Below, piece by piece: positions 3,001 to 63,271 of a stretch of DNA of 64,000 nucleotides (position 1 is its first letter; the number at the start of each line of letters is the position of its first letter). This DNA comes from a virus (taxonomy: Duplodnaviria; Caudoviricetes): positions 506 to 64,505 of the IMG/VR virus record IMGVR_UViG_3300027867_000005. One strand, 5' to 3'. A program made the position numbers and the translations under genes. The notes under the pieces are model-generated. The model had not been told where the DNA came from. It did no database searches and saw only the letters and a program-made list of their open reading frames with translations.

Positions 3001-3384
3001 GCATCGGCGCGGCTCGCGGCATCGGGATGGCCGTTCGTGTCGATCAACCAGCCGGACGGAAGCTCGCTTGACCCGATGGAAATCGCGCCCCCATGGGCAT
3101 TGGGACAGAAGATGCGGCCAACCCCGCCAGGACAGACATCACCAAGCCCGCCCTACCAGACGGCAGCGGGACAGACCGTACAGCCGCTGACGACAGGCGA
3201 TGTCTATTCCAATGTCATTGCCACATGGCGCAAGCCGGGCCAGCTTGCCCTGCAACAGCCGCTTCCGCTTCCGCTCAACGTAACGGCCTTTGTGGTCAAT
3301 GATGTTCCGGGCGATCTTCCGGAAGCCGGGATTTCGCCGCGGCAACAGCCTCCACCGCGCGGGCCGCAGAGACGGGCGACATGA
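1..3384 (+). CDS. Tail tubular protein B / nozzle (T7 gp12, P22 gp10-like), 5' truncated, with Gly/Thr-rich inserts and an E1-FCCH-like domain
   Basis: Frame is open from base 1. Motifs YPGVTAYFQTRRIYANT, WLKEQEVVGWTRHDT and GLSHLANKRV. Segment NGDWVFFRNVGGMTQLNGNTY resembles the FCCH-like insert. Lies just upstream of the internal virion genes. Confidence 0.85.
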   Translation, partial: DLITLAGGVYVLPAVLSVTNTTLVALLLNNPGIGNYAPGDTIHLAGGTQSTPAFVTVQTTKVVSATVAAGGTGGTNGTQTVTGTTGTGTKFQASVTVAGGAITAVLGILVGGDYTVNPTTPATEPVTGASLTGAQLDIVIGVRSITLTNGGVFTANASSGTFTQASSSGTGTGATFVGGIFGPNVLAISTAGIYSVLPSNPVSQASTTGASGFGATFTMTSGATAAFNNGDWVFFRNVGGMTQLNGNTYIVAGVSGVNFSLTDLDGNAIDSTSYGVFTSGGTVARIYTLTTPYAAADLPYLKYTQDTDTMSLTCVNISTGTEYPPQELKRFGATNWTIAPLAIGAVVPAPTGLTATASNNPDSGASPPTQPCAYAYVVTAVDLVTGQQSIASARADVVNTVDMSVTAGSITLQWNSINWNNPVAYNVYRTAPAYNTGGSTTVALPVPAGAQFFFVGLSYGTQLVDTNTVTDASTTPPLHIDPFAPGQVQSVRITASSNDWTTATASITSGTGSGWIGECVIVDGSIVAIIVLDPGMNYTSADTLSVSGTGTSVTGALNVGPQSGTYPGVTAYFQTRRIYANTRNQPDTFFTSQSENFTDFDSSNPPVADDAITASPFSQTVDGIQWLLPTLGGLVILTGNGAWQVTGTGGSAFAPVPITPSSLEATPQAVNGADAVCMPTKVNNDILYLSSTGQFYYELNYTIYFNSFTVVDISWTSAHFFLGQTIRQNAWCLQPYKILWAVRGDGAFLSLTWLKEQEVVGWTRHDTQGVVQGVCTVTEPPVDALYMIVQRFVQSRWLYFAERMDNRIWNDVETTWCVDCGLSTLTAAAYPSGILTVSAATGSLITVQSSQANFAPANVGDIIRAGGGILTITAYSTSQLVTGTWTKPLTALIPNDPLGTPLPIPAGQWSMLPQVTVVTGLSHLANKRVVGLLDGIPIGGGAAANPNFPGPYIVSSTGSLTLPFEASLVTIGLAFTPQVQSLYLDEGQPTVQTRRKVINNASARLAASGWPFVSINQPDGSSLDPMEIAPPWALGQKMRPTPPGQTSPSPPYQTAAGQTVQPLTTGDVYSNVIATWRKPGQLALQQPLPLPLNVTAFVVNDVPGDLPEAGISPRQQPPPRGPQRRAT

Positions 3385-11877: not shown

Positions 11878-12029
11878 CTCATTATTGTATCGTTGGCTTT
11901 CGCTTAATAAGAAAAACACAAGATCATCTCAACCGGGGAGCGGGCTTATGCTGGGCGGTAAACCATCCTATAGGCTGAGCCATGCGACGCTCGGTGCGCA
12001 TCCTTTTACATCCGCGCGGAGATAGGATT

Positions 12030-12335
12030 GTGGGTTATTTCAGCAGGCGCCAAGATGTTGCCGCGCTCGTCAAGGATGCCGTGGCAAATGCGGTCGCCGA
12101 TGCTACCAATGCCGTCACATTGGCCGGGCATATGGCCCAATGCGAGAAGGACAAGGCAGAGCTGAAGGCCGAGCAGTTGCGGATGCACAACGAGAACAAC
12201 ATCAAGTTCAAGCTGATCGAGGATCAGAACGCCAAAATTATGCGGATCGTGTATATTGCAACCGGAGTGCTCGCCACCCTGCATCTCGTCGTGTCGGAAA
12301 AGGGAGCGGCGTTCCTCTCGCATTTCGGGCTTTGA
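12030..12335 (+). CDS. Small coiled-coil protein with C-terminal TM helix (lysis-module membrane protein)
   Basis: GTG start after GGAG/AGGA; hydrophobic stretch IVYIATGVLATLHLVV; directly upstream of the endolysin. Confidence 0.55.
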   Translation: MGYFSRRQDVAALVKDAVANAVADATNAVTLAGHMAQCEKDKAELKAEQLRMHNENNIKFKLIEDQNAKIMRIVYIATGVLATLHLVVSEKGAAFLSHFGL

Positions 12336-12346
12336 TCGGAGACCAC

Positions 12347-13129
12347 ATGGCAGGGCTACTCGCATTTGACGCCGATCAGCACATCGGAGCCATCGCGCCG
12401 CTGGCGATCAGCAAGGGCGTTCGCATCTTCCTCCCATACTACAAGCTGTTCAGCCCGGCCGATCGGGATGCGATCTTCGCAGCCGGCGCGGCAGCCGGCG
12501 TCGAGGTTGGTATCATTCCGATTTTCGAGACAACCGCTGAGCGCGCGCTTGGTGGCGCATCGGCTGGATCGAACGATGCCGACGCTATCGCGGCCTACAT
12601 GAATTCGGTCCGGCAACCTCTCGATACAGCTTTCGTGCTGACCTTCGATTTTGACGAACAGACCGCACAAGATTTGGCCTGCCGTGCTTATGCAGCCGCG
12701 GTGCATGCCGGCGTCGACACACAGCCCATGATCGCCTATGGCAACGGCGCGCTCACTGAGGAACTAAAGGCTGCCGGCATCGCCAAGTTTTCGTGGGTAG
12801 CGGGCGGCATGGGCATGCGCGGCACCCGCGCCGACATCGCGGGCGGCAACGAAGATATGCAACAGGATGTCGGCGACGTACGCGGGCTGCATCTCGGGAT
12901 CGAGATCGACAGCGACTTTGCTCCGCATGCGACATCGCCGCGCGATCTGTGCGCATGGATGGCAACGCCACCTCCTGAGCAGTGGCAGCAGCCTACGCAA
13001 CAGACGGGCGTGGATAAAACGGCGCTCCTGAAAACATGGCAAGCCACTCTCGGCGTCACTGCGGACGGCATTTGGGGGCCGAATACCGCCGCCGCCTTTG
13101 CCGCCTATTTTGGAGACGACAATGGCTGA
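12347..13129 (+). CDS. Endolysin: DUF1906/GH25-like TIM barrel plus peptidoglycan-binding domain
   Basis: FDADQ, IIPIFET, TFDFD, IDSD motifs; C-terminal WQATLGVTADGIWGPNT PG-binding signature; GGAG RBS. Confidence 0.75.
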   Translation: MAGLLAFDADQHIGAIAPLAISKGVRIFLPYYKLFSPADRDAIFAAGAAAGVEVGIIPIFETTAERALGGASAGSNDADAIAAYMNSVRQPLDTAFVLTFDFDEQTAQDLACRAYAAAVHAGVDTQPMIAYGNGALTEELKAAGIAKFSWVAGGMGMRGTRADIAGGNEDMQQDVGDVRGLHLGIEIDSDFAPHATSPRDLCAWMATPPPEQWQQPTQQTGVDKTALLKTWQATLGVTADGIWGPNTAAAFAAYFGDDNG

Positions 13130-13478
13130 TCAACCTTCAGCATCGCTGACCACGACTGCCATCGGTGGCTTGACGATCGCCACGGTACTGCCGTTCGTCG
13201 ATTGGGCGTGGACCGGCTTCCACGGCGCTCCGCCGGACTCGCTCAAAGGTCTTGTTGCCGGCGGCATTCTCTTTCTCGGGCATGCCGTTCAGAAGGGCAT
13301 TGTCGCGTGGCTCGGCACTCGCAAGACCCCGGCTGCGGAAGCCTTGTTGCAGGCCATTGAGACGGTGCCGGCGCCCGCGCCAGTGCCTACGGTATCCCCG
13401 CTTCCTACGCCTCCCGCCATCGTCGTTAATCCTGCTGGCGTTATTGCCACTCTGCAAATGCAAGGACAAAACTCATGA
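13122..13478 (+). CDS. Holin-like membrane protein
   Basis: Two hydrophobic segments; overlaps the endolysin stop. Confidence 0.5.
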   Translation: MADQPSASLTTTAIGGLTIATVLPFVDWAWTGFHGAPPDSLKGLVAGGILFLGHAVQKGIVAWLGTRKTPAAEALLQAIETVPAPAPVPTVSPLPTPPAIVVNPAGVIATLQMQGQNS

Positions 13479-13966
13479 TCCGCAAACTTCTCGCTGCCTC
13501 GGTCGCCGGCTTCGTTCTTCTCTCTGGCTGTTCGTCGGGCACCACCACGCAGCCGGTCACGGTCTCGACGATCACCACGCAGGCCGCACAGGATGTGCAG
13601 ACCCTCGCCATCGGCTTGCCGGCGATCGTCAGCGCGCTCCAGACGGCCGGCGTCTCGTCGACCGCCTTGGCGCAAGTTCAGACCGATCTGTCGAAGGTCC
13701 AAGCCGCAGCCACAGCGCTGGCCGGGATGCCCGCAATCCCATCGAATGCAACCGCGCTCCAGACATTCGAGGTGGCGCTGAACGATGCGCTCTCGGTCGC
13801 CAATGCCGTACTGCCGGGCAACCAGTACGTCGTCGCCGCGTCGCTGCTTGCGCCGCTGGTTGAGGGCGGCATCAATCTCGTCGCGTCGCAGCTCCCGGCG
13901 GCGCCCGCGCCAGCGATGACGCCAGATCAGGCGCGCGCGATCCTGCGCTCTGTGGCTGCGCGGTAG
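13475..13966 (+). CDS. Lipoprotein (possible spanin or lysis accessory)
   Basis: MIRK + hydrophobic core + LSGC lipobox. Confidence 0.65.
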   Translation: MIRKLLAASVAGFVLLSGCSSGTTTQPVTVSTITTQAAQDVQTLAIGLPAIVSALQTAGVSSTALAQVQTDLSKVQAAATALAGMPAIPSNATALQTFEVALNDALSVANAVLPGNQYVVAASLLAPLVEGGINLVASQLPAAPAPAMTPDQARAILRSVAAR

Positions 13967-23172: not shown

Positions 23173-23179
23173 ATCATAT

Positions 23180-23253
23180 TGGTCGGGGCGGCAGGAGTTG
23201 AACCTGCGGCCTTCTGTTCCAACACAGACGCTCTATCACTGAGCTACGCCCCT
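23180..23253 (-). tRNA. tRNA-Pro(TGG)-like with a 6-nt anticodon loop (possibly a pseudo-tRNA)
   Basis: 74-nt cloverleaf with CCA; G72/A73 Pro identity; arm TCTGT-GTTGGA-ACAGA; A1-G72 mismatch. Confidence 0.7.
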
Positions 23254-40431: not shown

Positions 40432-40432
40432 G

Positions 40433-48248: not shown

Positions 48249-49295
48249 ATGGCTACGGGCGCCTGGCCAACATTGTTAGACGTAGCCCAAAGGGAGGGTC
48301 CGGATGGCAAACAGCTATTCCTCGCGGAAATGCTGTCGCAGACCAACGAAATCCTCGACGACACGCCGTTTGTCGAGGCAAACGAAAAGACCGGGCATGA
48401 GTTCGGTTTCCGTGACAGCATCCCCGCTGGTGCATGGCGCTCGTACAACATGGGCGTCGGCTACTCGAAGTCGACCGCAGGCAAGTCGCGGGTCGGCATC
48501 GGCACGCTCGCGGCATGGAGCCAGGTCGACCGCGATCTCGCGGAAGACAGCGGCGACCCGGAAGCATTCCGCGAGAGCGAGGATATCGCCTTCATGGAGG
48601 GGCTGTCGCAGACCTGGGCGGAAGCCTTGATCTACGGCAATACGGCAGCCATACCGTCGCAGTTCATGGGGCTGGCTCCGTTCTACAACACCGCCAGCAC
48701 CGGTACGGCGAAAAACGCCGCCAATGTCATCGATGCGAAAGGCGTCGGAAGCTCCAATACGAGTTTCTGGGGCATCGGCTGGAACGAGGGCACGTTCTAT
48801 TGCGTGTTCCCGCGCGCCGGCAAAGCCGGTCTCGACATGTTCGACCGCGGCGACACGGTTCCGGCCTACGACACGCTCGGCAACCCGTTTGCGGCGTTTA
48901 CGACCGAGTTCCGCTGGCGCGGCGGCCTTGTCCCGCAGGACTGGCGAAACGGCGTCCGCATCGCCAACATCGACACGACTGCTGCGGGGTTGCAGGGGCC
49001 GAATGCGCCTGACCTGTTCTCGCTGCTGGCGCAGATGATGTATCTCTTCCCGGCGCTCGGGAAGCGCAACAGCGGCATCGGCAGCACCGATGCGCCGCGC
49101 GACCGCTCAGTTGGCGTCCGAGCCGTCATCTATGTCAACCGCACCGGCCGGCATTGGATGGACATCCAGGCCACGCGTGACCGCAACGTCCTGCTGTCGA
49201 TCGACGATTATGCGGGCAATCCGACGATGGGTTACCGCGACGTGCCGATCCGCATCGTGGACCAAATCGTCAATTCGGAAAGCCGCGTGACCTGA
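48249..49295 (+). CDS. Major capsid protein (BPP-1 Bbp17 / epsilon15 gp7-like)
   Basis: EMLSQTNEILDD, FRESED.AFMEG, DWR...RIANID; AGGAG RBS. Confidence 0.92.
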   Translation: MATGAWPTLLDVAQREGPDGKQLFLAEMLSQTNEILDDTPFVEANEKTGHEFGFRDSIPAGAWRSYNMGVGYSKSTAGKSRVGIGTLAAWSQVDRDLAEDSGDPEAFRESEDIAFMEGLSQTWAEALIYGNTAAIPSQFMGLAPFYNTASTGTAKNAANVIDAKGVGSSNTSFWGIGWNEGTFYCVFPRAGKAGLDMFDRGDTVPAYDTLGNPFAAFTTEFRWRGGLVPQDWRNGVRIANIDTTAAGLQGPNAPDLFSLLAQMMYLFPALGKRNSGIGSTDAPRDRSVGVRAVIYVNRTGRHWMDIQATRDRNVLLSIDDYAGNPTMGYRDVPIRIVDQIVNSESRVT

Positions 49296-51476: not shown

Positions 51477-52736
51477 ATGAAACAGTTTCGCTTGGTCGGC
51501 ACCGCAGCGCTGCTGATCGTGATGATCGGCATAGCGGCGACGCGAGCCGGCGTCTTCACGCTGTATTCGACGCTGACCAATGGCGAGATCGTCATCGATC
51601 AGGCAAATCCGACCGGCGCGCAGTTCACGTCTGGTCTTTTGCACGGCACCTCGAACGGCATCAACGCACAGACCGGGACGAGCTACACGATCGTCGGCAG
51701 TCCTGGCGCACAAACCGGCAGCCCGCTTTATACCGGCGACATGGGGGCGCTGGTCACTTTCAACAACAGCAGCCCGGTCGCCGTTACGTTGCCGCAAGCG
51801 GGCACCAGCGGGTTCGAGACGAACAAATGGTTTGATGTCGAGAATATCGGGGCCGGCGCGGTCACGATCACGCCCACCGTATCGACGATCAACGGGTCGG
51901 CCACCCTGACCATTGACCAAGGCCGCGGCACACGGATTTATTCGGACGGCACCAATTGGCAGATCATGGCCGGCGGTGTCGGGCTTGCCGGAACGCCGTT
52001 GACGGTGCCGGAGGGCGGCACCGGTGACAGCACGCTTACTGCGCATGGTGTATTGCTCGGGCAGGGCACGTCGGCGGTTACTGCTGTCGGCCCGACCACG
52101 ACGGGCATTCCGCTCATCGCCAAGGGCGCGACCTCGGACCCGGCCTACGGCACCGCTGTCGTTGGCGGCGGCGGCACTGGTGCGACAACCCTCACGTCGC
52201 ACGGTGTCCTTGTAGGCGAAGGAACGAGCGCGGTTGTCGCCACGACCGCAGGCACCGCAGGGCAATTGCTGATCGGCACCGCAAGCGACCCGGCATTTGC
52301 AACGCCCGCATCGGCACTCACCCTCCCCGGTAACCCGTCAGCGATCAGCCCCGGCACATCGACGGCACAGGCATTCGGGCTTGGCGCGAATAGCAACCCG
52401 TCAGTTCTGACGCCGGTAGCGACCGGGCGCGTCTATTACTCGATCACCTTCACCGTTCTCATCGCCAGCACCAGCAACGGTGCCACGTTCTCATGCCATC
52501 ACGGCACCGGCTCGGCACCGGCGAATGCTGCGACAACCGGGCTCGGCACCGCAGACAGCGCCGCCGTGGCCTATCTCGCCGGGGCGACCACGGAAAAAGC
52601 GGTCATCACCTGTTCCGGCATCGTGACCGGGGCGACGCTCAGCACCGCGCTGTGGTTCGATGTGATCGCCCTCAACACCACCGGTTCACAGTCGATCACC
52701 CCGACTCTCACCACCTTTACCGCGTTCGAGTTCTAA
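51477..52736 (+). CDS. Tail-fibre-like protein with an N-terminal signal peptide
   Basis: VTLP, GAGAVTI, SDGTNW, and repeated GGTG..TLT.HGVL.G.GTSAV fibre motifs. Confidence 0.7.
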   Translation: MKQFRLVGTAALLIVMIGIAATRAGVFTLYSTLTNGEIVIDQANPTGAQFTSGLLHGTSNGINAQTGTSYTIVGSPGAQTGSPLYTGDMGALVTFNNSSPVAVTLPQAGTSGFETNKWFDVENIGAGAVTITPTVSTINGSATLTIDQGRGTRIYSDGTNWQIMAGGVGLAGTPLTVPEGGTGDSTLTAHGVLLGQGTSAVTAVGPTTTGIPLIAKGATSDPAYGTAVVGGGGTGATTLTSHGVLVGEGTSAVVATTAGTAGQLLIGTASDPAFATPASALTLPGNPSAISPGTSTAQAFGLGANSNPSVLTPVATGRVYYSITFTVLIASTSNGATFSCHHGTGSAPANAATTGLGTADSAAVAYLAGATTEKAVITCSGIVTGATLSTALWFDVIALNTTGSQSITPTLTTFTAFEF

Positions 52737-52761
52737 ACCGCTCTCATCGGAGACAGGCACC

Positions 52762-54087
52762 ATGAAAATTCCGCGCTTCGGGTTCGTTGGCGCCCTCGCC
52801 GCAGCGGTGACGCTCGCCGCGGCTGCCGCCCATGCCCAGCAGCCGACGCCGATCCTCGTTCCGTCGATCGGCGCCAACGACATCATCTGCAATGATATCG
52901 TGAATGGTCAGGCGACGCCGCAGGACCATTGCATTACCGCAGCGATCCTCGGCAATTTCGCCGGCACGGTGCCGAGCGGAAACATGGACAACGCGCTGAT
53001 CGGCGGCGATTTCACGACCAATCTCTTTCAGCGCGGCACGACCGGAAGCAATGTCACCACCACCCTGACCTACGGCGCGCCTGACCGCTTTTTTGCGTGG
53101 GACGGCGGCACCGGCACGCAGGCGACCAGCACTCTCAGCCGCGACACGACTGCGGCCGATATCCCGGCCGACTACAAATACGCGGTGAAGCACCAGCGCA
53201 CTTCCGCGCAGACCGGCTTGGCCCAGCTTTGCATCGGCCAGGTTGTCGAGAGCTCCAACGCGTACCAGTTCCAGAGCCAGACCGCGGAATTCGATTTCCA
53301 CGCGGCGCCCGGCGGCAATTTCAGCGCCGCAGGCGACAATGTGACGGCATACATCATCACTGGCACCGTTGCCGATGAGGGTGCCGTCAACATGGCTTAC
53401 GGCATCAATACCGGCGGCGGCGGTTCCGGGGGCTGGACGGGGCAAGTCAATTGGGGCGTTACCGTCCCGGTCACCTCGCTCAACCGCTTCACCATCGCCG
53501 CCCCGGTACCGGCTGCGGCAGCCGAGATCGGCGTGGCTTTGTGCTGGACGCCTGTCGGCACCGCCGGGACCAATGATTACGTCGCCTACAGCGGGCTGCA
53601 GTTGACGCGCAACAGCGCCTTGACGCCGCTTGTGGCAAGCAATGCCAGCGGCACCGCGACCCTGCTCAACAGCTATCAGCAGCCGGCCGCAAGGTCTTTC
53701 GCGCGCCGTTCCCAGGCCGTCGAAATCGCGTTGCAGCAGCGCTACTACTACGAGGTGGACGAGGTCGCGTCATCCACTGCGGCACTGCCGGGCATATGCG
53801 AAGCGCAAAGCACGACCGTGGCGGTTTGCAGCATCCCGCTCAAGGTCTCGATGCGTGCGGCACCCACCGTTGCCTGTACCTTCGGCACGCTGAAACGCCA
53901 GGTCGCGGGTACGGATACGGCCCTCACCGCCTGCGCTGCGGCAGCCACCACAAACGGCGTTTCCACGCCCGAGACGGTATTCATTACCGCAACGGTCGCG
54001 AGCGGCGATACGGCGGGTCTTGCCGGCGTGTTGATGAGCGGCAATTCCACCGGTGGCGGAAAGATCACGGCCAGCGCCGAGGAATAG
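52762..54087 (+). CDS. Tail-fibre/receptor-binding-like protein with a signal peptide
   Basis: N.LIGGDF...FQRG...PDRF, EIALQQRYY and MRAAPTV motifs; AHA|Q cleavage site. Confidence 0.7.
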   Translation: MKIPRFGFVGALAAAVTLAAAAAHAQQPTPILVPSIGANDIICNDIVNGQATPQDHCITAAILGNFAGTVPSGNMDNALIGGDFTTNLFQRGTTGSNVTTTLTYGAPDRFFAWDGGTGTQATSTLSRDTTAADIPADYKYAVKHQRTSAQTGLAQLCIGQVVESSNAYQFQSQTAEFDFHAAPGGNFSAAGDNVTAYIITGTVADEGAVNMAYGINTGGGGSGGWTGQVNWGVTVPVTSLNRFTIAAPVPAAAAEIGVALCWTPVGTAGTNDYVAYSGLQLTRNSALTPLVASNASGTATLLNSYQQPAARSFARRSQAVEIALQQRYYYEVDEVASSTAALPGICEAQSTTVAVCSIPLKVSMRAAPTVACTFGTLKRQVAGTDTALTACAAAATTNGVSTPETVFITATVASGDTAGLAGVLMSGNSTGGGKITASAEE

Positions 54088-54091
54088 CCGA

Positions 54092-54295
54092 ATGCCGTGG
54101 ACGGCGAAGCAATTCGCCACCCGCCACAACAAGAAGCTGAAGGGCGCGGCGGCCGAGGCTGCCGCACGCCAAGCGACTGCGATGGTCAAGGCCGGCGTTC
54201 CCGAGGGCATCAGCATCGCGACGGCGAATAAGCACGCAGACAAGATGAGGCGCCGTCGCGCTCTCTACGACCACCCGAGCAGCAAGCGTGGCTGA
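54092..54295 (+). CDS. Small basic protein ending RRRRALYDHPSSKRG
   Basis: GAGG RBS; MPWT...EGISIATAN is ChaB-like. Confidence 0.7.
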   Translation: MPWTAKQFATRHNKKLKGAAAEAAARQATAMVKAGVPEGISIATANKHADKMRRRRALYDHPSSKRG

Positions 54296-54494
54296 AAAAG
54301 TCTCGAAGCACAGCGTAGGCTACGAGCGCCCGGCTCAGGGGCCGCACCACTGCGCCCAATGTGGGCATTTCCAGCGCCCGCGCGGCTGCGAGATCGTCGC
54401 AGGCATTATCCGTCCGGAAGACTGGTGTCGACGTTTCAAGCGGAAGAGCGCGAATGCCGTCTCCCACCATGATCGACGTAGCGCAACGGAGTAG
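54288..54494 (+). CDS. HiPIP-like iron-sulfur protein
   Basis: K..VGY...CAQCGHF....CEIVAGII...DWC..F is the HiPIP pattern. Confidence 0.75.
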   Translation: MAEKVSKHSVGYERPAQGPHHCAQCGHFQRPRGCEIVAGIIRPEDWCRRFKRKSANAVSHHDRRSATE

Positions 54495-54498
54495 GCCC

Positions 54499-54774
54499 GT
54501 GGCGAAATTCTGGACACCGAAGGGCAGCGTCAGCACGGCCGGGCGGCGTGAGGCCGAAAACAAAGGCCAGACTATGCGCGGAGGTTCATTCCCGATACGA
54601 AATGCCGCCGATCTTGCGCGGGCCAAGCATGATGTTGGTAGGGCGAAAGACCCGGCCGCCGCTCGCCGATGGATCAACAGGCGCGCTAAAGAACTCGGCG
54701 AACCCAGCCTTGGTCAGAGCAAGGAGAAGCGCCGGCGCACCCTCTACGATCATCCCTCGTCAAAGCGCTCGTAG
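54499..54774 (+). CDS. Small basic protein ending RRRTLYDHPSSKRS
   Basis: GSFPIRNAADL..A...GRAKD...RRWINRRAKELG. Confidence 0.7.
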   Translation: MAKFWTPKGSVSTAGRREAENKGQTMRGGSFPIRNAADLARAKHDVGRAKDPAAARRWINRRAKELGEPSLGQSKEKRRRTLYDHPSSKRS

Positions 54775-54780
54775 GAAATT

Positions 54781-54917
54781 GCTGCGGGCCGGGCGCTACT
54801 CCGGCGGCGTCTCGGGCGTTGGCCCAGTTTGGGGCCGCTTCTTAAGCTGCACCCCTCGCTCGTATCGCTTTCTGATAATCCAGAGCTTCCTAGCGCGATG
54901 TCTCGCGCCGCCACAGC
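54781..54917 (-). ncRNA. tRNA-shaped non-coding element A
   Basis: 7-bp closing stem GCTGTGG/CCGCAGC, hairpin GCGCGA/TCGCGC, T-arm-like GCCGG-AGTAGCGC-CCGGC; homologous to 60848-61013. Confidence 0.65.
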
Positions 54918-54933
54918 GTAACGAGGATACCAC

Positions 54934-55344
54934 ATGGCTGAGACTGAGAAAAAGCCCGAACGCAAGAGCCGCCGGGAAGCGATGTACGACCATGAGGACA
55001 GCAAGAAGCGGCGCGAGGCCAGCGCCCAGCCGAAGCGGGCGGCATCTGGCGGCGACGGCGAGGGTGTCGGCAAGATGACCGGTACGGAGCGGTCCCATGC
55101 CGAAATGCTGATGCGCCACCGCAACGAACGCCGAGCCATGCATGGCCGTCACCGGGCCGAGCATGATGCGATCGACAAAGAAGAAGGGCCGAAGGCTCAC
55201 AAGAAGATCGCCGCGCATCATCGCCACCGTGTCGAGATGGACCAGATGCATGGCAACCACGAGAACGAACTGATGGCGGCCGAGCAGGCCCAGCCCGGCA
55301 GCGCCACAGCGCCCGAGGCCGTTCCTACAGCGGCAGCGGCGTAA
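54934..55344 (+). CDS. His/charge-rich protein carrying RREAMYDHEDSK
   Basis: GAGG RBS; repeated RH..E units. Confidence 0.7.
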   Translation: MAETEKKPERKSRREAMYDHEDSKKRREASAQPKRAASGGDGEGVGKMTGTERSHAEMLMRHRNERRAMHGRHRAEHDAIDKEEGPKAHKKIAAHHRHRVEMDQMHGNHENELMAAEQAQPGSATAPEAVPTAAAA

Positions 55345-55358
55345 AGGAGCGCAAGGAC

Positions 55359-55670
55359 ATGGCATGGAGTCGCATGATCGACATGGAGCTCGACGATGAG
55401 GACAAAGTCGAGACGATGTGCCCGCCAGCCCTTGAGAATGTGCCCGATTACCCATGGGGTCTGCGGATCACGCTGACGCACCGCGAGCTTGAAAAGCTTG
55501 GCCTCGACGATGATTGCTCGGTTGGCGACGTGATCGATCTGCGAGCCTTCGCCCGCGTGTGCTCGATTTCGAGCAACGAGACGGCGATGGGACCGGAGTG
55601 CCGCATCGAGCTGCAGATAACCCAGCTCGCGGTAGAGAACGAAATGGATGAAGAGGACATGCCGGGCTGA
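55359..55670 (+). CDS. Epsilon15 gp10-like capsid staple protein
   Basis: YPWGLRITL...LGL...VG...VCSIS...ELQIT. Confidence 0.75.
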   Translation: MAWSRMIDMELDDEDKVETMCPPALENVPDYPWGLRITLTHRELEKLGLDDDCSVGDVIDLRAFARVCSISSNETAMGPECRIELQITQLAVENEMDEEDMPG

Positions 55671-55728
55671 GGCGTTTGCCTCTTACGGCTCCGATTGCCG
55701 GCGCCGGCATAGACAGGGATTACCGATC

Positions 55729-56337
55729 ATGAGCGACGCGCGCGATACCGCGATGGTACCGAACCCGAACCGCGACGAAACCGATTACGGACGCGCCAGC
55801 CACATCGAGCGCATCAATCCTGGCGACAACCCGGCGGCTGCGCCGTGGGCTGCAGGAACTTTCCCGGTTCCTCCCGAGCCACCGCAGGAACGCGGCATAA
55901 AGCGGCTTTACCGCATGCTGATGAAGGGCACCCACGATGGCGTTCTTCACCGTGCGGGCTCGACGGTGATGCTCTACGACGACGAGGTAGGGCCGCACCA
56001 CCAGTTGACGCCGGAGGGGACGCAGCCGCTTCCGGCGGCTGCGGTGGGCAGCGTGCGCGATCCGCGGGACGAAGAGATCGCGAAGCTGCGCGGTGTGCTG
56101 GCGTCACACGAGACGGCACTGTCGGGGCTGACAGCCATCGCTGAGCACGCCGATGAATTGGCGCGACTGCATGATGTCATCGATGCCCTCACCCGCGAGC
56201 GCGACGAAGCGCGGGCCGAGATCGATCGTCTGAAGGCTGAGATGGCCGCTATGGCGCCTGCGGTAGAGGTGATACCCGCTACCGATGCCGCGCCGATGCC
56301 AGTTCCCGATGCTCCTGCGCCACCGCCTGCGGTCTGA
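55729..56337 (+). CDS. Hypothetical coiled-coil protein
   Basis: ORF in the late operon. Confidence 0.6.
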   Translation: MSDARDTAMVPNPNRDETDYGRASHIERINPGDNPAAAPWAAGTFPVPPEPPQERGIKRLYRMLMKGTHDGVLHRAGSTVMLYDDEVGPHHQLTPEGTQPLPAAAVGSVRDPRDEEIAKLRGVLASHETALSGLTAIAEHADELARLHDVIDALTRERDEARAEIDRLKAEMAAMAPAVEVIPATDAAPMPVPDAPAPPPAV

Positions 56338-56365
56338 TGGCGATGCTTATCTGGAGGGAAGGTTC

Positions 56366-58369
56366 TTGATCTGCTCATTCAGTTTTCGATCGCTGCTGGC
56401 AGCGGCCGCCGTTCTCCTAGCGGCGGCCGTTTTCGGTTGTGCCGATGCCGATGCGCAAGGTGCCGTACAGGCGTACCAGCCGCAGGTCTACGGCCACGGC
56501 GCGATGTTCGGGCCGCAGAGCAACTACATCATGGATGCCGGCGGTCCGACGCAGAACGGGTTGCCGCCGACGAACCTGACAAACCCCGGCACGTCGCCGC
56601 TGGGTTACCAGTGGGTCAATTCCGGTCTCGGCACTTGCGGGTTCAGCGCCTATGCCAACCAGACGGCATGGTCGTCTTTCTGCATGGGATTTGACGGCTC
56701 GGGCAACGCTTTGCTGTCGATCAGCGGCGTCAACCAGACTCCCAGCGCCTATGTGAACCTGAACGGGGTGCGCTATCCGCTGGTCGCGGGCGGCGGCAAC
56801 ATGGTCGGGCCGTCGCTCAGCGTTGCGGACGATCTGCCGTCATTCACTGACACGACGGGGAAGCTCATCAAGGATAGCGGCTTTCCCTCGGCTGGTGTTC
56901 CGGCAGGGACGATGCTGGCGTTTCCGCCCGCCAATTGGTCGCCGGCCGCACCGAGTGCATGCTGGACATGGGTATCGCCGCCTGGTGTGCCGTCAGTCAA
57001 TTGCGCGTCAACGGTAAGCGCGGGCCTTGCGGAAGCGATGGCGATCCGCGCGCAATATGGCCTCTCGATGCGGATTTACGGACCGGGCGAGAATCTGTTG
57101 GGCGGCGGGGGAGGCAGCAGCACCTACCCCTATATGAGTTCGACGGTCGCTATCAACACCGGCCAGATGGCGCAGCAATCCATCATTGCGCAGGGCGTGA
57201 ACCTGACGATCGCCGGGGTGACGGGTTGCGCCTTCACCATCAACACGATGAATGACGGATCGAATTTCTATTGGGGCGGTCTCATCGTCGACGGCAACAA
57301 TGCCCCGACATCATCGAGCCACGCCGTCTGCATTCAGCCGACGAGCAACGCACCGGTGGAAGGTTTCCCGATCGTCGTTGCGGTGCCGATCTACATCGGC
57401 GGCATCGCCTTTGGCACCGGTGGCGCGCCATCCGTCGCTGCGGGCGATGACCTCTTTATCGACCCGTCGACCGCCAGCGTGCAGCGCGCCGACATCACGG
57501 TTGGTGAGATCAACTGCAATGGTCCAGGGGCCGGAGCGGTGTCAAATGCCGGCATTCGGATAGGCCCATCGACGCTGAACACGGCTATGTTCAGCACGCA
57601 TGTGCGTGTGTTTGATCTGCATAATTGCGTGAACGGCGTTATCGATGGGGGAACGGTCGTCAATCCTGGCCCATTCGCCAATGATTTTCGGCTCGATAAC
57701 GTCAGCCTGTCAGCAGACGTTTCCGGGAACAAAGGCATCGCCTTTGACGAGTTCGGCTATAACAACGACATAACCATGCCGACCGTCAACACGTTCGAGG
57801 GTCCCTACAACACCGCGATCAAATTCGAGACCGGATCAGGGGCGTCGGCGCGCGCGGGCGCGATTGGCGATCGTGTTCACATCGAAGCGGAAGGCTATTC
57901 AGTCGGGATAGGTTGGATCGATGTCACCGCCGGAGCTGCCGGTCATGACATGGAGTTCAACGGCAACCATGTGCTGGGCCGGCTTCTTGTGGCTTGGACA
58001 CCAGCGCTTAATTTCAGCTCGGCGTCGACGGGGATCACCTATTCGCTGCAGAGCGGCGCGATCCTGCAGAACGGCAAGGAGATCACGGCGGATTTCAATC
58101 TGACGCTCACGTCAAAGGGTAGCGCGAGCGGCGTCGCGACGATTGCCGGCCTTCCTATCGAGCCGCAAGGCACATATCCCGGCGTCTGTAGCATCAATGA
58201 CTATAGCAATATGGCCTCACTAACGGGACAGCCATTTGGTTCCATTCCAACAGGAACAACTTCTATCGCACTTTACCTTCCTGGGTCAGCCGGCCAATTT
58301 AACATCGCTGACACCAATTTTACCAATACGACGCTGATCACCGGCACCTGTCACTATCTGACCAATTGA
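56366..58369 (+). CDS. Tail spike/fibre-like protein with a signal peptide
   Basis: TTG start after GGAGG; FTDTTGKLIKDSG fibre motif; beta-rich body; C-terminal WTP.L...IAGLP domain. Confidence 0.7.
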   Translation: MICSFSFRSLLAAAAVLLAAAVFGCADADAQGAVQAYQPQVYGHGAMFGPQSNYIMDAGGPTQNGLPPTNLTNPGTSPLGYQWVNSGLGTCGFSAYANQTAWSSFCMGFDGSGNALLSISGVNQTPSAYVNLNGVRYPLVAGGGNMVGPSLSVADDLPSFTDTTGKLIKDSGFPSAGVPAGTMLAFPPANWSPAAPSACWTWVSPPGVPSVNCASTVSAGLAEAMAIRAQYGLSMRIYGPGENLLGGGGGSSTYPYMSSTVAINTGQMAQQSIIAQGVNLTIAGVTGCAFTINTMNDGSNFYWGGLIVDGNNAPTSSSHAVCIQPTSNAPVEGFPIVVAVPIYIGGIAFGTGGAPSVAAGDDLFIDPSTASVQRADITVGEINCNGPGAGAVSNAGIRIGPSTLNTAMFSTHVRVFDLHNCVNGVIDGGTVVNPGPFANDFRLDNVSLSADVSGNKGIAFDEFGYNNDITMPTVNTFEGPYNTAIKFETGSGASARAGAIGDRVHIEAEGYSVGIGWIDVTAGAAGHDMEFNGNHVLGRLLVAWTPALNFSSASTGITYSLQSGAILQNGKEITADFNLTLTSKGSASGVATIAGLPIEPQGTYPGVCSINDYSNMASLTGQPFGSIPTGTTSIALYLPGSAGQFNIADTNFTNTTLITGTCHYLTN

Positions 58370-58372
58370 GCG

Positions 58373-60208
58373 GTGCACGCCATGTTCTCAAGCATCAGAT
58401 CATTGCTGGCTGCGGCGGCGCTGCTTGTGCTGTCGGCACCGGCGCATGCCCAAGTGCCGCCGTCGCCGCCATTCCTCAATCCGCCAATCACTGCCGGCGA
58501 CTGTCTCAAGGCCGGGTCGTCGTTCGGGGCGATCAGCGATGCGGGATTTTCCTGCACGGGGAGCGGGGTTCTCCCGACACTGGCCGCGAACAGCATCCTC
58601 GAAACGAACGGCACACCAACGGCGTCGTGGCAGACAAAGCTTTTCGGCTGGACGCCACAACTCGGCATCGCTGACAATTCGACGACGACAGTCGGCGGGA
58701 CGAATACGGGCTTTGCCGTTGGCGATCAACTGACGCTGAATGACGGCTGCGCGACGCACGGGGTCATCATCGTCAGCATTGTGTCAGGCGGCGCCATCCA
58801 GGCTAACGGCTGGGTCATCTCGAACAAGGGCGTGTGCGCACAAGCACCGGCCAACCCGGCCGCAGTCGGCATCCTGTCATCGACCGGTGGAAGCACCAAT
58901 GCGACATTCAATTTGACCTATGTGCCGGTCAACATGGGCAGCCTATCCATAGCCGGATCGTCTTCGATCAACAACGGCAATCTCCTGATTTCACCGACCG
59001 TCTTCAAGTCAATCGGTACCGAGACGACGATCATAGCTGGGGGCTTTACTGGCCAGTACTGGTCGCAGGGGAATTTCAATACCTTCCTCGGCCTTGGCGT
59101 GGCGCAGAGCGGTGCGAACTGCGCCGGCAGCGTTACGGCCGTCGTGTTCGACACCGACACGCTCGGCGGCACCGATGCGGCGCGCAACTCCTGCGGCATG
59201 GAGCGGGTCACGCTTTGGGGTTCCGGCGCGATGAAGAACTATACCGGCGTCGAGACCACGCCGGGCAGTCACATGGCGTTCGGCACGGTTGCGGTCGGGG
59301 CCAATGCGCTTTTGAACTGGAACGGCACGACATTCCCGTGGAATACAGCGGTTGGCGACAGCGCGTGCCAAGGCGCGAGCGGCGCCACCTTCACCAATGC
59401 TTCGTGCTTTGGCTCGAACACCGGCAAGAACCTGACGAGCGCGAGCAATGTGCTCATCCTGGCCGGCGGCGGCAACGGGCGGGACACATGCTCATCGTGC
59501 AGCGGCGTCATCGATATACTGAGCGGATCGCAGGCCAGCACGCTCTCGGCGACCGCGACCAACACCATCAACTTCGACAACTCGCTGCGGATCACCGGCA
59601 CTAACACGCCGAGCACATCGGTAACGACGGCCGAAGGCAGCCTGACCGTTGCCGGCGGCGCGCTCACGGCGACGAACGGCAGTTCGACGGTACCCGCGAT
59701 TACGTTCGCCGCCGGTGACAGCACCGGGCTGTCAGAGACCTCGGCCGGGACGGTGGCACTCTTGGCCAGTGGGGTCACCAATGCCAGCTTTACCAGCACG
59801 ACCACGGCATTGACTATGACCGCGACCAGCGCCGCGCAGGCCGGAACGCTCTGCGGATCGACCTCGACGGGCGGCACGATCACGATCGATACTACTCTCG
59901 GCTGTCTTTCGTCAGATGAGCGCTTGAAGCAGATCGGCACCCCGCTCGCCGATCCTACGGAGACGCTCATGCGTCTGGAGCCGATTGTGTACCGGTGGCG
60001 TCCCGACGCCCCGCGGGCGAAGGATGATCCCGGCGACCATATCGGACTTGGTGCCTTTGCGACGGCTTATGCCGATGAAAGGCTGATTGCCCGCGGCGCC
60101 GATGGGCAGCCGAGGGCATGGCGCCAGGATGCGATGATCGCGCTGCTGGTCGCCGTGGTGCAGCGGCAACAGAGCGAGATCGAGGCGCTCCAGAAAGCGC
60201 GGCAATAA
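58373..60208 (+). CDS. Tail fibre with a signal peptide and a C-terminal S74 intramolecular chaperone
   Basis: AHA|Q signal; NTAVG..A repeats; SDERLK...L.PIVYRW...LVAVVQ..Q.EIEAL. Confidence 0.85.
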   Translation: MHAMFSSIRSLLAAAALLVLSAPAHAQVPPSPPFLNPPITAGDCLKAGSSFGAISDAGFSCTGSGVLPTLAANSILETNGTPTASWQTKLFGWTPQLGIADNSTTTVGGTNTGFAVGDQLTLNDGCATHGVIIVSIVSGGAIQANGWVISNKGVCAQAPANPAAVGILSSTGGSTNATFNLTYVPVNMGSLSIAGSSSINNGNLLISPTVFKSIGTETTIIAGGFTGQYWSQGNFNTFLGLGVAQSGANCAGSVTAVVFDTDTLGGTDAARNSCGMERVTLWGSGAMKNYTGVETTPGSHMAFGTVAVGANALLNWNGTTFPWNTAVGDSACQGASGATFTNASCFGSNTGKNLTSASNVLILAGGGNGRDTCSSCSGVIDILSGSQASTLSATATNTINFDNSLRITGTNTPSTSVTTAEGSLTVAGGALTATNGSSTVPAITFAAGDSTGLSETSAGTVALLASGVTNASFTSTTTALTMTATSAAQAGTLCGSTSTGGTITIDTTLGCLSSDERLKQIGTPLADPTETLMRLEPIVYRWRPDAPRAKDDPGDHIGLGAFATAYADERLIARGADGQPRAWRQDAMIALLVAVVQRQQSEIEALQKARQ

Positions 60209-60240
60209 TCGCCGCCGCAACCAAAGACAGGATTTAGCCC

Positions 60241-60843
60241 ATGCCAACGCAAGCCGGGATCGTCAACGAAGCATTGGCGATGATCGATAGCCAAGCGACC
60301 ATCACCGCCCTCAACGATGGCAGTGTCGAGGCAAATGCCGCGACGCAAATTTATACCCCGACGCTGCAAATGCTGCTCCGCCAACTCGATCCGGACTTCG
60401 CCCGCACGACGAATGCTCTGGTCGCCGCTGCCGCATCGTCGCCGTTGCCCCCCTTCCAGTATGAGTATGCCTATCCGGCCGATTGCCTGCGGGCACGGCA
60501 GGTAGCGCCCCCTCCCACCGGGACGGGATCATTGGCCGATCCTTTCGACCCGAGGCCCATCCCCAGCGAGATCGCCTACGATCCGAACGGCGGCGGCGTC
60601 AGCACGCCCGAAAAGGTGATCCTGACCAACCAGCAGAATGCGTGGCTCAGCTACACCACGAGCAACGTCACCGAGGCGATGTTTGACGCCGCGTTTGTCG
60701 AAGCCTTTGCGCGCCGTATCGCCAGTCCGCTCGCGATGGCTATCGCCGGCCGCCCGGATTTCGCACGCGAGTTACTCGAAGAAGCCGAGCGTTATGCTGC
60801 CCTAGCCGAGTTGGTTGATGAAAGAGCGGATGGTAGTGCGTGA
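60241..60843 (+). CDS. Tail tubular protein A / adaptor paralogue 1
   Basis: IVNEAL...DGSVEAN...FAR...YAYPADCLR...FDAAFVEA. Confidence 0.8.
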   Translation: MPTQAGIVNEALAMIDSQATITALNDGSVEANAATQIYTPTLQMLLRQLDPDFARTTNALVAAAASSPLPPFQYEYAYPADCLRARQVAPPPTGTGSLADPFDPRPIPSEIAYDPNGGGVSTPEKVILTNQQNAWLSYTTSNVTEAMFDAAFVEAFARRIASPLAMAIAGRPDFARELLEEAERYAALAELVDERADGSA

Positions 60844-60847
60844 ATTT

Positions 60848-61013
60848 GCTGAGGGTCGGTCGCTACTCCGACGCGGGTGATCTTTTGGCGCCACCCTGGC
60901 ACTGCCGGCGAAAAGGAGCTAACTCCCGAAACCCTCCGGACAAGCTATCTTCCCGAGGTCGCTAGCCCTCGCATCGCTTTCTGTTGCGCGTCTGCATTCC
61001 GCGCTGCCTCAGC
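60848..61013 (-). ncRNA. tRNA-shaped non-coding element B
   Basis: Closing stem GCTGAGG/CCTCAGC, hairpin GCGCG/CGCGC, T-arm-like GTCGG-AGTAGCGA-CCGAC; covaries with element A. Confidence 0.65.
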
Positions 61014-61032
61014 AAAATCAGGATAAGCTACA

Positions 61033-61659
61033 ATGGCCCAGAGTGTCGAGGACATTTGCAACCAAGCGCTCCGTGCGGCCGGTAGCCGCAAACGTATTGG
61101 TTCTATTTACGACGGTTCTCCGGAAGCGCGCGCGTGCCTTGATTTCTACGGGCAAGTGCGAGACGAGGTGCTGCAGGAGCAGGATTGGCCTTTCGCAATG
61201 CGCGAGGCTGCGCTGACATCGGCATCCCCTGCGCCACCGTGGCCATGGATCGCCGAATACATCTACCCATCGGACGCCTTGCGCATTCACTACGTACAGC
61301 CCTCGCAATCCCAAGTGCCAGATCCTTTCGACCCACAGGCGGTGCAATTCCAGGACTTCAACGATCCGCGCATACCGGGGCTGGCGCTGCTGTGCAGCCT
61401 GCCGGCAACACCGTCGCCGCCGATCGCCATCTATGTCGGGCGCGTGACCAACCCCTCGCAATGGCTGCCTGAGTTCACCAACACCTTCATCGCGAGGCTG
61501 GGAGCCAAGATCGCTCTGTCGCTCTCGCAAAACATCGATGTCAGCAAGCAGGCATGGGCGATCTCGGACATCACCGAACAGAACGCCGCGTCAGTCAATG
61601 ACACGACGCCGCCGCGGCTGCCGATGACGACGGGCATGGAAAACCAGCGGAGCCGCTGA
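61033..61659 (+). CDS. Tail tubular protein A / adaptor paralogue 2
   Basis: ICNQAL...DGSPEA...WPFA...YIYPSDALR. Confidence 0.8.
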   Translation: MAQSVEDICNQALRAAGSRKRIGSIYDGSPEARACLDFYGQVRDEVLQEQDWPFAMREAALTSASPAPPWPWIAEYIYPSDALRIHYVQPSQSQVPDPFDPQAVQFQDFNDPRIPGLALLCSLPATPSPPIAIYVGRVTNPSQWLPEFTNTFIARLGAKIALSLSQNIDVSKQAWAISDITEQNAASVNDTTPPRLPMTTGMENQRSR

Positions 61660-62324
61660 TGGCGACGACAGTCGAGCAGATCGTCAACCAAGCGCTCTAC
61701 GCGATCGGCTATCCCCGGCGCATCGGTAATATCTATGAGGGCACCGCAGCGGCGCGGGCAGCGCTCGAAGTCTACGGCCAGACGCGCGACGAGGTGCTGT
61801 CGGCGCAAGACTGGCCATTTGCTCGGGCTGGCGGCGCACTCCCGCTGACGTTGCTGAAAGGGCCGCCGCCACCCGGAGGCTACAGCCCGTTGCAGCCGTG
61901 GTCGCCGATCTATCCGGCTGCCGGTTTCCTCTATGAATACGCCTATCCTGCAGACTGCCTCGAACTGCGCGCTGTGATTGCGCCGCCGCTGGCTCTCCCG
62001 AACCTTGACCCGAAGGCCGTATCGTGGCGGCTCGACAACGATGCAACGCCCGTCCTTTCCGGGCCATATACGCAATTCCCGGCCGCGCCTCCTACGGTCT
62101 CAGGGCCGCCGCAGAAAGTCATTCTCACCAACCAGGGGAGCGCCCTCGCCGTCTATCGGCGCCGGATCACCAATCCGTCGCTGTGGACCGATCAGCTTTT
62201 TGTCGCGATGTTCATCGCTGCACTGGCGAGCAAGCTGTCATTGGTGCTGACCGGACGCCCCGGCGATGACCAAGCCAAGATGGCCGCAGCGACGGGCGCA
62301 CTGGCTGATCTCACGAAGGGCTGA
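61659..62324 (+). CDS. Tail tubular protein A / adaptor paralogue 3
   Basis: IVNQAL..IG...WPFAR...YAYPADCL. Confidence 0.8.
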   Translation: MATTVEQIVNQALYAIGYPRRIGNIYEGTAAARAALEVYGQTRDEVLSAQDWPFARAGGALPLTLLKGPPPPGGYSPLQPWSPIYPAAGFLYEYAYPADCLELRAVIAPPLALPNLDPKAVSWRLDNDATPVLSGPYTQFPAAPPTVSGPPQKVILTNQGSALAVYRRRITNPSLWTDQLFVAMFIAALASKLSLVLTGRPGDDQAKMAAATGALADLTKG

Positions 62325-62326
62325 CG

Positions 62327-63271
62327 ATGGCCTTTTACACGCCTGCTGACATTGTGAACAGGTCCTTGAACGCTCTCGGGGTGCCGTTCGCGATCGGGAG
62401 CCTTGAAGACGGCACCGATATCAGCGAGACGGCGCGGCGTGCGTATGGGCCGATGCTGCGCCAGCTTTTGCGCGCAGCTCACTGGAACTTCGCGCGAGCG
62501 GTCGCCAAGCTGGAACTGCTAGGCGACGCCAGCGGCAACTCGCAGGCTCCCCAGGGCTATCCGACCGGGCAATCACCGCCGCCGGGACCGGGGGTGCCGA
62601 TCTCCAATATCGTCGAACCGCCATGGGTCTATGCCTACGCATGGCCGGGCGACGGCGTTGCCGCCCGCTGGCTGCCGTGGCGGCTCGAGCCCGTTCCGAG
62701 CAACAACCCGCCGCTCTATACCGGGCAGCAGAACAGCAACCAGTTGCTCATCAACCAGCATCCGGCGCGGTTTCTCGTGTCGTCCAGCAACCAGTATCCG
62801 ACGATCGTCGACCCGGTAGATTGGGATCGGTTTCCCGATTTCGAGAGTACTGAAGGCGTCGGCCCGATCGGGCGCCGCATCATCCTCACTAACGTTCCGT
62901 TCGCTCACCTCGTCTACACCCGGCTCGTTCTCTCGATCGAGGAATGGGATCCGATGTTCGAGGAAACCATGGTTGCCTTCATGGCCCAGCGGCTTGCGCT
63001 GGTCGCATGCAAGGCGGCGAAGATGTCGGACGCGGAGGCGATCAAGCTGCGCAACGATCAGATCGGCATCGTCAAGGAGCAGCTGATGGAGGCGCGCACC
63101 CGCAACGCCAACGACGCCGGTTTCCCGCAGACGCCTGACCATATTGCGCCGTGGACGCGGGCACGGCGGTACGGCGGCTCACGGTGGGGCGCTGGCGGTC
63201 TCGGCATCGGGCCGGGAGTGCTCGGCTACGGGTGGGATACGCTCAGCATGGGTTCGGGAAACGTGTTCTAG
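62327..63271 (+). CDS. Tail tubular protein A / adaptor paralogue 4
   Basis: IVNRSL..LG...HWNFAR...YAYAWP...WDPMF. Confidence 0.8.
   Translation: MAFYTPADIVNRSLNALGVPFAIGSLEDGTDISETARRAYGPMLRQLLRAAHWNFARAVAKLELLGDASGNSQAPQGYPTGQSPPPGPGVPISNIVEPPWVYAYAWPGDGVAARWLPWRLEPVPSNNPPLYTGQQNSNQLLINQHPARFLVSSSNQYPTIVDPVDWDRFPDFESTEGVGPIGRRIILTNVPFAHLVYTRLVLSIEEWDPMFEETMVAFMAQRLALVACKAAKMSDAEAIKLRNDQIGIVKEQLMEARTRNANDAGFPQTPDHIAPWTRARRYGGSRWGAGGLGIGPGVLGYGWDTLSMGSGNVF

Follow-up and report, generated by a model that had tools for sequence, protein, structure and literature searches.

In the textbook account, tailed phages assemble wholly in the cytoplasm of the infected cell. Pseudomonas phage vB_PaeP_Tr60_Ab31 (hereafter Ab31), one of the nearest cultured relatives of the phage studied here, is short-tailed and encodes one gp11-like tail adaptor, a gp12-like nozzle of 779 amino acids (aa), internal virion proteins, and, in a gene that follows the latter, a long leaderless fiber, gp17 (783 aa), which is its receptor-binding protein. 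Here we analyze four proteins, termed A, B, C, and D, that are encoded at 51477..60208 in an uncultured tailed phage and begin with leaders of the kind that direct export through the Sec pathway. The window, by which we mean the whole stretch of DNA analyzed, is 64,000 nucleotides (nt) long and corresponds to bases 506–64505 of the 64,505-bp IMG/VR virus record IMGVR_UViG_3300027867_000005 (CheckV completeness 100%). The phage is known from sequence alone, and its morphology class, a short-tailed podovirus, is read from its genes.

The window phage shares with Ab31 the capsid type (~41% identity), a gp11-like adaptor, a gp12-like nozzle, and internal virion proteins. It differs in having four adaptors in place of one, a 1,267-aa nozzle in place of one with 779 aa, and four leader-bearing, fiber-like proteins encoded between the capsid and adaptor genes. 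Identity of the capsid protein to its nearest cultured relatives, Pseudomonas phages of the Ab31/YA3 type, is at most 41%, and the 16-kb block finds no DNA match in the cultured-phage collection. Judged from sequence, it is nearly certain that A–D are exported by Sec and folded with disulfides; that they then join the virion at lysis is, in our estimate, slightly better than an even proposition.

Four leader-bearing proteins in the late structural block

The late structural block that contains A–D begins at the gene for the major capsid protein (48249..49295, + strand), which is of the epsilon15 GP7 type (PF20911, E = 6.4e-91). All four genes lie on the + strand, inside the virion block, between the capsid and tail adaptor genes. 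Protein A (419 aa, 51477..52736) starts at ATG 51477, with AGGAG 10 nt upstream, and protein B (441 aa, 52762..54087) at ATG 52762, which has GGAG upstream and follows the preceding stop codon by 25 nt. Protein C (56366..58369) has 667 aa when read from TTG 56366, which lies 28 nt after the preceding stop, with GGAGGGAAGG upstream; a start at ATG 56285 would overlap the previous gene, leaving TTG 56366 as the sensible start. Protein D (58373..60208) follows the stop codon of C by 3 nt and has 611 aa from GTG 58373 or 608 aa from ATG 58382. Thus A, B, and C have a Shine-Dalgarno sequence ahead of the start that includes the leader, and the site upstream of D is weak. An earlier note on this DNA, made from the letters and a list of open reading frames (ORFs), had described four late ORFs with Sec-type leaders here; the ORF translations, starts, and leader pattern agree with that description. 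True starts downstream of the hydrophobic segments, which the note had named as grounds for abandoning its reading, are not favored, given these Shine-Dalgarno sites in front of the leaders of A, B, and C.

Each protein consists of a leader followed by modules of different types. Protein A exposes a TRA|G site at the end of its leader (res. 1–24, MKQFRLVGTAALLIVMIGIAATRA|G), followed by modules of fiber repeats and, at the C-terminus, a knob that contains the pair Cys340/Cys379. In protein B, the leader (res. 1–25, ...AAAAHA|QQ, an AHA|Q site) leads into a jelly-roll tail-fiber tip resembling a carbohydrate-binding module (CBM) and containing eight cysteines. The leader of protein C (res. 1–30, ...CADADA|QG, an ADA|Q site) precedes a conserved post-leader module (~res. 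31–185, 56456..56920, + strand), delimited by BLAST alignments and a candidate anchor domain, and a probable β-helix body. Protein D starts with a leader that ends in ...SAPAHA|QV (an AHA|Q site) and continues into a cysteine-rich shaft, whose 12 cysteines occur as neighboring pairs, before the C-terminal S74 chaperone. A recount of the mature cysteines gives 2 in A, 8 in B, 10 in C (12 in total, 2 of them in the leader), and 12 in D, the same numbers that had been noted before.

Export leaders are conserved in kind across divergent homologs

Leaders were called with our own heuristic, based on hydrophobicity and the −3/−1 rule, together with conservation across homologs. At the N-terminus, each of A–D combines one or two basic residues with a hydrophobic core, and positions −3 and −1 are small, which is the Sec-type pattern cut by signal peptidase I. 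Their n-regions expose single Lys or Arg residues and no twin-arginine (Tat) motif. When applied genome-wide to the 34 ORFs of ≥200 aa that pass a GC3 filter, the leader test flags six, namely A–D and two antisense shadow ORFs, one within the portal gene and one within D; the other 28 are unflagged.

The leader recurs in all four families. Protein B has at least 339 relatives at E ≤ 0.001, and 117 of the 120 best homologs bear a leader by the heuristic; of the three that fail, P0010 and P0094 are apparently start-site artifacts. All five IMG/VR homologs of B are also leader-bearing. The same holds for 13/13 members of the D family (D and 12 homologs, 435 to 975 aa long) and 4/4 of the C family (C and three homologs). 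The full-length homologs of A (P0155, P0171, P0195, P0260, and L008) possess leaders with AxA|Q-type sites, cleaner than the site in A itself. This conservation in kind while the sequence drifts is the strongest test of whether the leaders are genuine, and it strongly supports that they are.

Protein C was also considered as a lipoprotein processed by signal peptidase II, as its residues 22–25 read VFGC. Cysteine is absent from this position in all three homologs, and C and P0136 have the mature N-terminus QGAVQAYQPQ in common. Because the homologs lack the leader cysteine and P0136 has the same mature start, cleavage of C by signal peptidase I at ADA|Q is the better reading.

Mature cysteines are even in number and vary in pairs

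If the cysteines of A–D form disulfides, they are expected to come and go together, and this is the pattern found. The mature Cys count is even in 118 of 120 B-family members (binomial p ~1e-32), where C157 and C261 are invariant (120/120). Other cysteines in this family are gained or lost in pairs: alignment columns 346/356 contain both cysteines in 89 sequences and one only in 1, columns 354/422 both in 24 and one only in 0, and columns 52/56 both in 10 and one only in 0. In the D family, whose members have 8 to 22 cysteines each, 12 of 13 are even. All four C-family members are even too, and Cys91 and Cys106, located inside the post-leader module, are invariant in the four-sequence alignment. 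Of 16 leader-bearing ORFs chosen by hand from four complete genomes, each located within or adjacent to a virion gene block, 14 have an even number.

The fiber modules of A occur in both leader-bearing and leaderless proteins, which makes an internal control possible. We split the 150 best representatives sharing these modules by presence of a leader. Among the 45 proteins with a leader, 40 have an even number of cysteines and the density is 0.99 Cys per 100 aa; among the 105 without, the corresponding values are 53 and 0.44 Cys per 100 aa. The association between even count and leader is significant (Fisher p = 6.5e-6). The C-terminal knob of A is present in 11 of the 150 representatives, all with a leader, which is cut in one record by the record's end. 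Both knob cysteines are kept in nine of these 11 homologs, both are lost in one, and one cysteine remains in one.

Cysteine content is also higher in A–D than in the leaderless structural proteins: their mature regions contain 32 Cys in 2,032 aa (1.57 per 100), versus 36 Cys in 6,863 aa (0.52 per 100) for 17 leaderless structural proteins. Even counts and paired gain or loss across the B, C, and D families, together with a parity that follows the leader in the A-module set, bear out the pairing that had been read by eye, and strongly support the prediction that the cysteines of A–D are joined as disulfides. From the leaders and the paired cysteines together, it therefore follows that the host-recognition proteins of this phage very probably fold in the periplasm, apart from cytoplasmic particle assembly.

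Fiber-like folds and modules in A–D

Protein B provides the clearest structural match. It aligns with phrog_4492, annotated 'tail fiber protein' (E = 2.9e-14), over the C-terminal part of the profile (792–1071 of 1096). An AF2 model of B (pLDDT 81.9) finds its best BFVD matches among predicted phage tail fibers (TM 0.5–0.67, E from 1e-18 to 5e-28), including those of Xanthomonas phage FoX4, Burkholderia phage BcepNazgul, Ralstonia phage phiAp1, Agrobacterium phages, and cyanophages. The closest structures in the PDB are CBA120 tailspike 4 and carbohydrate-binding jelly rolls. By these BFVD models, the FoX4, BcepNazgul, and cyanophage fiber tips have the same CenC/CBM4-like jelly-roll fold as B. 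The position differs: in several of the matched fibers the jelly roll ends a chain of 900–1,270 aa, whereas in B it follows the leader and ~50 residues.

In protein D, PF13884 (Peptidase_S74) matches residues 514–559 (E = 3.4e-5, 24.5 bits against a cut-off of 22). The intramolecular chaperone region, with the C-terminal remainder, covers 59912..60205 on the + strand, and an SDERLK stretch stands at the start of the domain, a Ser-Lys catalytic pair being expected at the cleavage site of such chaperones. The fiber hallmarks reported earlier, with the S74 chaperone among them, thus stand: the domain scores above the Pfam threshold, and both the fold and the profile of B point to tail fibers.

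The modules of A are found in 4,081 proteins at E ≤ 0.001, and its repeats are common to long leaderless fibers. In protein C, residues 543–636 match a tail fiber protein of Hafnia phage yong1, and weak Atlas leads (scores <0.9) point to PF12708 and pectate-lyase-type β-helix clusters. An AF2 model of C from the four-sequence alignment has a mean pLDDT of 37.7 and is unusable. The cultured-phage collection contains no match for B or D and short local matches only for A and C; IMG/VR scans for homologs of C and D found none. Taken together, the sequences strongly support a fiber-like nature for all four proteins.

Anchor-plus-tip architecture and the case for virion attachment

Protein C resembles a part that docks to a conserved partner. 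BLAST alignments of C with P0136, P0137, and G003_59626 end at or before residue 190, and the distal parts show no relationship. Over the C-type N-terminal module, G003_59626 also aligns with G002_44524 and L004_5114, and these three adjoin adaptor genes in related phages. The same module is carried on differing distal domains, such as PF12708 in P0137 and a D-type S74 end in P0133. For the C-type proteins, these alignments suggest a conserved anchor with swapped tips, as in receptor-binding proteins.

Gene content is consistent with this assignment. The window and three relatives that are complete by CheckV (100%; 63, 68, and 84 kb) contain no leaderless fiber-like ORF of ≥200 aa. In every one of these four genomes, four ORFs within or flanking the virion block bear a leader, with a homolog of B among them. 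The absence of a signal-less fiber gene, on which the earlier note had leaned, therefore extends to the three complete relatives, with the caveat that the long nozzle may carry receptor-binding domains.

The adaptor genes vary in number. The window contains four tandem gp11-like tail tubular A (adaptor) paralogs of 200, 208, 221, and 314 aa (60241..63271, + strand; phrog_394, E from 9e-35 to 5e-20), immediately after D; relatives G002, G003, and L004 have three each, and the only adaptor of G001 belongs to the long type. C-type anchors are present in the window, G002, G003, and L004, all with three or four adaptors, and absent from G001 with its single adaptor. That C-type anchors occur only with several adaptors among these five related phages hints that the extra adaptors are docks, and we regard the extra paralogs as candidate docking partners. 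A one-to-one rule of adaptors to fibers was tried and fails, the ratios being 4:4 in the window, 3:4 in G002 and G003, and 1:4 in G001. Outside the virion block, G001 also has a gene (59825–60577, − strand, locus L031/L032) for a 250-aa protein that begins with the classical leader MRKLFGILGALALLSSTAAMA|AD and is possibly a moron-encoded outer-membrane protein.

A cultured phage provides a precedent for leaders on virion proteins. For three large proteins of the podovirus phi18:3 (Pachyviridae), which infects Cellulophaga of the Bacteroidota, the record gives a virion or tail annotation 'based on experimental MS/MS proteomics' (gp085, gp086, and gp087; we take their virion status from this annotation, L045 5892-11584). 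All three start with Sec-type leaders (MKNKITIIMILMSISFGYSQ|V and similar), which nine other annotated virion proteins of this phage that we examined do not. The anchor-plus-tip architecture of C, the position of the genes in the virion operon, and this cultured precedent lead us to favor attachment to the virion over a secreted blocker. On balance, export, oxidative folding, and joining of the virion at lysis is the reading of A–D to which we give a little more than even weight.

Several points weigh against attachment. For this clade, A–D are known from genes alone. The phi18:3 proteins are not homologous to A–D (best E = 0.23) and have 0, 1, and 3 cysteines, so that the likeness is one of analogy only and export of virion parts may not always concern disulfides. 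No T7-type tail-fiber domain or other known virion-anchor family matches A–D in Pfam, even at E ≤ 1, and the only noteworthy Pfam match in the four proteins is S74 in D; an Atlas lead to an Mtd_N domain (score 0.86) was likewise unconfirmed by Pfam at E ≤ 1. We also asked if the mature N-terminus of B is like the N-termini of leaderless fibers, and a profile of residues 27–82 found nothing at E ≤ 1 among 172 targets (leader-bearing and leaderless homologs of A, C, and D, two leaderless IMG/VR fibers, and A, C, and D themselves). The ORFs scanned include no phage oxidoreductase, Dsb-like, signal-peptidase, or periplasmic chaperone gene. Docking would need to occur within seconds around lysis or in a diluting lysate, and the assignment of the lysis cassette is itself weak. 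Receptor-binding domains could also reside in the 1,267-aa nozzle, and this weakens the case that the clade has no receptor-binding protein besides A–D. A complex prediction with adaptor paralog 4, the N-terminal 480 aa of the nozzle, and B residues 27–110 scored 0.00, run without controls, and counts neither way.

Alternative fates of the exported proteins

The strongest competing explanation accepts export and disulfide bonding, and holds that A–D never reach the particle, remaining free in the periplasm or being released. They could then serve as receptor-masking or decoy lectins, as adhesins released at lysis, or as enzymes that strip nascent surface polysaccharide, thereby preventing superinfection and the loss of progeny on debris; host binding by the virion would fall to the enlarged nozzle or the adaptor paralogs. 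Much of the structural evidence can be read this way. Export and disulfides are well supported and virion incorporation is inferred, B is a CBM-like jelly roll, and the weak pectate-lyase-type β-helix leads for C (scores <0.9) would suit an enzyme. The nozzle is ~490 aa longer than that of Ab31 and has an insertion rich in Gly and Thr, within which lies an E1_FCCH-like domain (PF16190, E = 5e-7). Phage T5 provides a described case, its exported lipoprotein Llp blocking the receptor used by T5 itself. Four observations count against it. Free proteins would occupy ~2,100 residues of coding capacity in the virion operon, in the capsid-to-tail interval of every complete relative examined; the C-type module, kept while distal domains are swapped, follows the pattern of parts that dock to a conserved partner; periplasmic proteins cannot reach outer-surface receptors before lysis; and leader-bearing proteins are recorded in the purified virions of a cultured phage. 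We consider free proteins a real contender, with roughly half the weight given to virion attachment.

Alternatively, A–D may after export be retained in the envelope of the infected cell or in vesicles, or be displayed there, being neither free nor part of the virion; in this place they may tether particles or cells and shape spread. The hydrophobic core of A is long (16 residues), its TRA|G site is the weakest of the four, and C places a Cys at −6 in the VFGC context, all features of a chain that might stay in the membrane. The homologs speak otherwise: full-length relatives of A have ordinary AxA|Q-type sites, those of C are devoid of the leader cysteine, with P0136 sharing its mature start, and neither a lipobox nor a β-barrel anchor is seen in A, B, or D. 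Retention in the envelope is therefore improbable.

That the hydrophobic N-termini are not export signals at all, with true starts downstream or the segments serving as structural parts of cytoplasmic fibers, is very improbable. In its favor are leader calls made by a heuristic rather than a trained predictor and the weak ribosome-binding site of D. Against it stand ribosome-binding sites ahead of the starts that encode the leaders in A, B, and C, genes that abut the preceding stops, an n-region, hydrophobic-core, and AxA pattern held across hundreds of divergent homologs despite sequence drift, and even, co-varying cysteines that go with the leader.

A proposed two-compartment route of assembly

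We propose that A, B, C, and D are the receptor-binding fibers and spikes of the phage and that they would mature by a route that uses two compartments. In a first step, late expression from the virion operon would be followed by threading of unfolded A–D into the periplasm by the host Sec machinery, where signal peptidase I would cut the leader. Second, the host thiol oxidase system would join neighboring cysteines as disulfides and the chains would trimerize, assisted in D by the C-terminal S74 chaperone, which would then cut itself off. Third, capsid, portal, adaptor, nozzle, and internal proteins would assemble in the cytoplasm as fiber-less particles. Fourth, the holin would open the inner membrane, and particles would meet the finished fibers inside the still-enclosed cell or just after the burst; the fibers would dock to the tail via their post-leader N-terminal modules, perhaps on the extra adaptor paralogs or the enlarged nozzle. 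Sequence statistics support the first two steps, the third is textbook phage biology, and we infer the fourth. The likely benefit would be appendages stabilized by disulfides for a long life in soil.

How far the route extends is a separate question. That the whole soil-podovirus clade relies on an obligate two-compartment assembly, with all fibers exported, adaptors acting as docks, and infectivity dependent on Sec and Dsb, is a proposition that we hold to be evenly poised. In the full-text literature searched, drawn mostly from outside subscription journals, we found no description of Sec-exported fibers of tailed phages; as far as we have seen, export-based fiber maturation is a route without precedent and apparently undescribed.

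If the proposal is correct, tailed-phage assembly has an unrecognized late step across compartments, and host Sec and Dsb functions are determinants of phage infectivity. Annotation pipelines that take a leader as evidence against a virion role would mislabel such fibers, for which the parity of cysteine counts provides a simple, testable marker in metagenomes. Stabilization of fibers by disulfides may account for how phages persist in soil, and the production of such fibers for engineering would need periplasmic expression.

Host, neighboring genes, and other features of the genome

A 64,441-bp contig binned in a metagenome-assembled genome of Bradyrhizobium sp. is the same phage (100% identity over B), which suggests a Bradyrhizobium-type soil bacterium as the host. 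The G+C content of the genome is ~0.61. Portal, T7-like nozzle, and internal virion proteins were identified among the genes of the window. The nozzle, or tail tubular B, occupies 1..3384 (+ strand; phrog_376, E = 8e-98); its gene starts 420 nt upstream of the window, and 1,267 aa is the length of the complete ORF (G000:86-3889).

Downstream of the internal virion protein genes lies a probable lysis cassette (11982..13966, + strand), identified from ORF translations and a weak endolysin match (phrog_13480, E = 0.0029). It encodes a small membrane protein, an endolysin-like ORF whose C-terminus resembles a peptidoglycan-binding domain, a holin-like ORF with two transmembrane segments, and a lipoprotein. 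This last protein (163 aa, 13475–13966) has the lipobox LLSG|C, the sole other clear leader in the genome, and is a candidate outer-membrane spanin or other envelope protein. Three enzymes are encoded 3′ of the lysis genes (14010–15882): a DHH phosphoesterase (phrog_4771), a BTLCP-family transglutaminase-like cysteine protease (PF06035, E = 2.8e-11), and an ORF resembling dual-specificity phosphatases.

Between B and C, the block contains a Gp10-like small capsid protein (55359..55670, + strand; PF21628, E = 1.2e-15). It is preceded by three consecutive small, highly basic ORFs (54053–55344; 80, 137, and 136 aa) that have a YDHPSSKR-like motif in common and no family match, and that might be internal or DNA-binding virion proteins.

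The large subunit of the terminase is apparently interrupted (38791–41227). Its first ORF (38791–40431) contains an intein-like insert, with Cys first and HN last before Thr, after which the frame shifts to an ORF at 40346–41227 that provides the rest of the ATPase domain and the nuclease domain; within the inserted stretch, an ORF runs on the opposite strand (39068–39817). A double HNH endonuclease (47083–48174, − strand; phrog_99, E = 6e-120) separates the protease/scaffold and capsid genes. Relative G002 has, between its adaptor and nozzle genes, a 259-aa opposite-strand ORF whose N-terminus is GIY-YIG-like by eye only. A tRNA-Arg(CCG) gene stands beside a second tRNA-like gene (23097–23253, − strand), to which ARAGORN assigned no anticodon, reading a two-base 'tg'.

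Comparison with known systems

Two groups of described phages each resemble part of the route proposed for A–D. The first comprises tailed phages whose fibers end in Peptidase_S74, as D does. The K1F endosialidase and the L-shaped fiber of T5 belong here, and both fold in the cytoplasm without a leader; the whole D family, by comparison, is leader-bearing and rich in cysteine. The second is the filamentous phages, in which the virion proteins pIII and pVIII have cleaved leaders and are exported by the host, and pIII acquires its disulfides in the periplasm. Assembly of filamentous phages takes place at the membrane, and their particles leave by extrusion rather than lysis, whereas the window phage is predicted to be tailed, to build its capsid in the cytoplasm, and to encode a lysis cassette.

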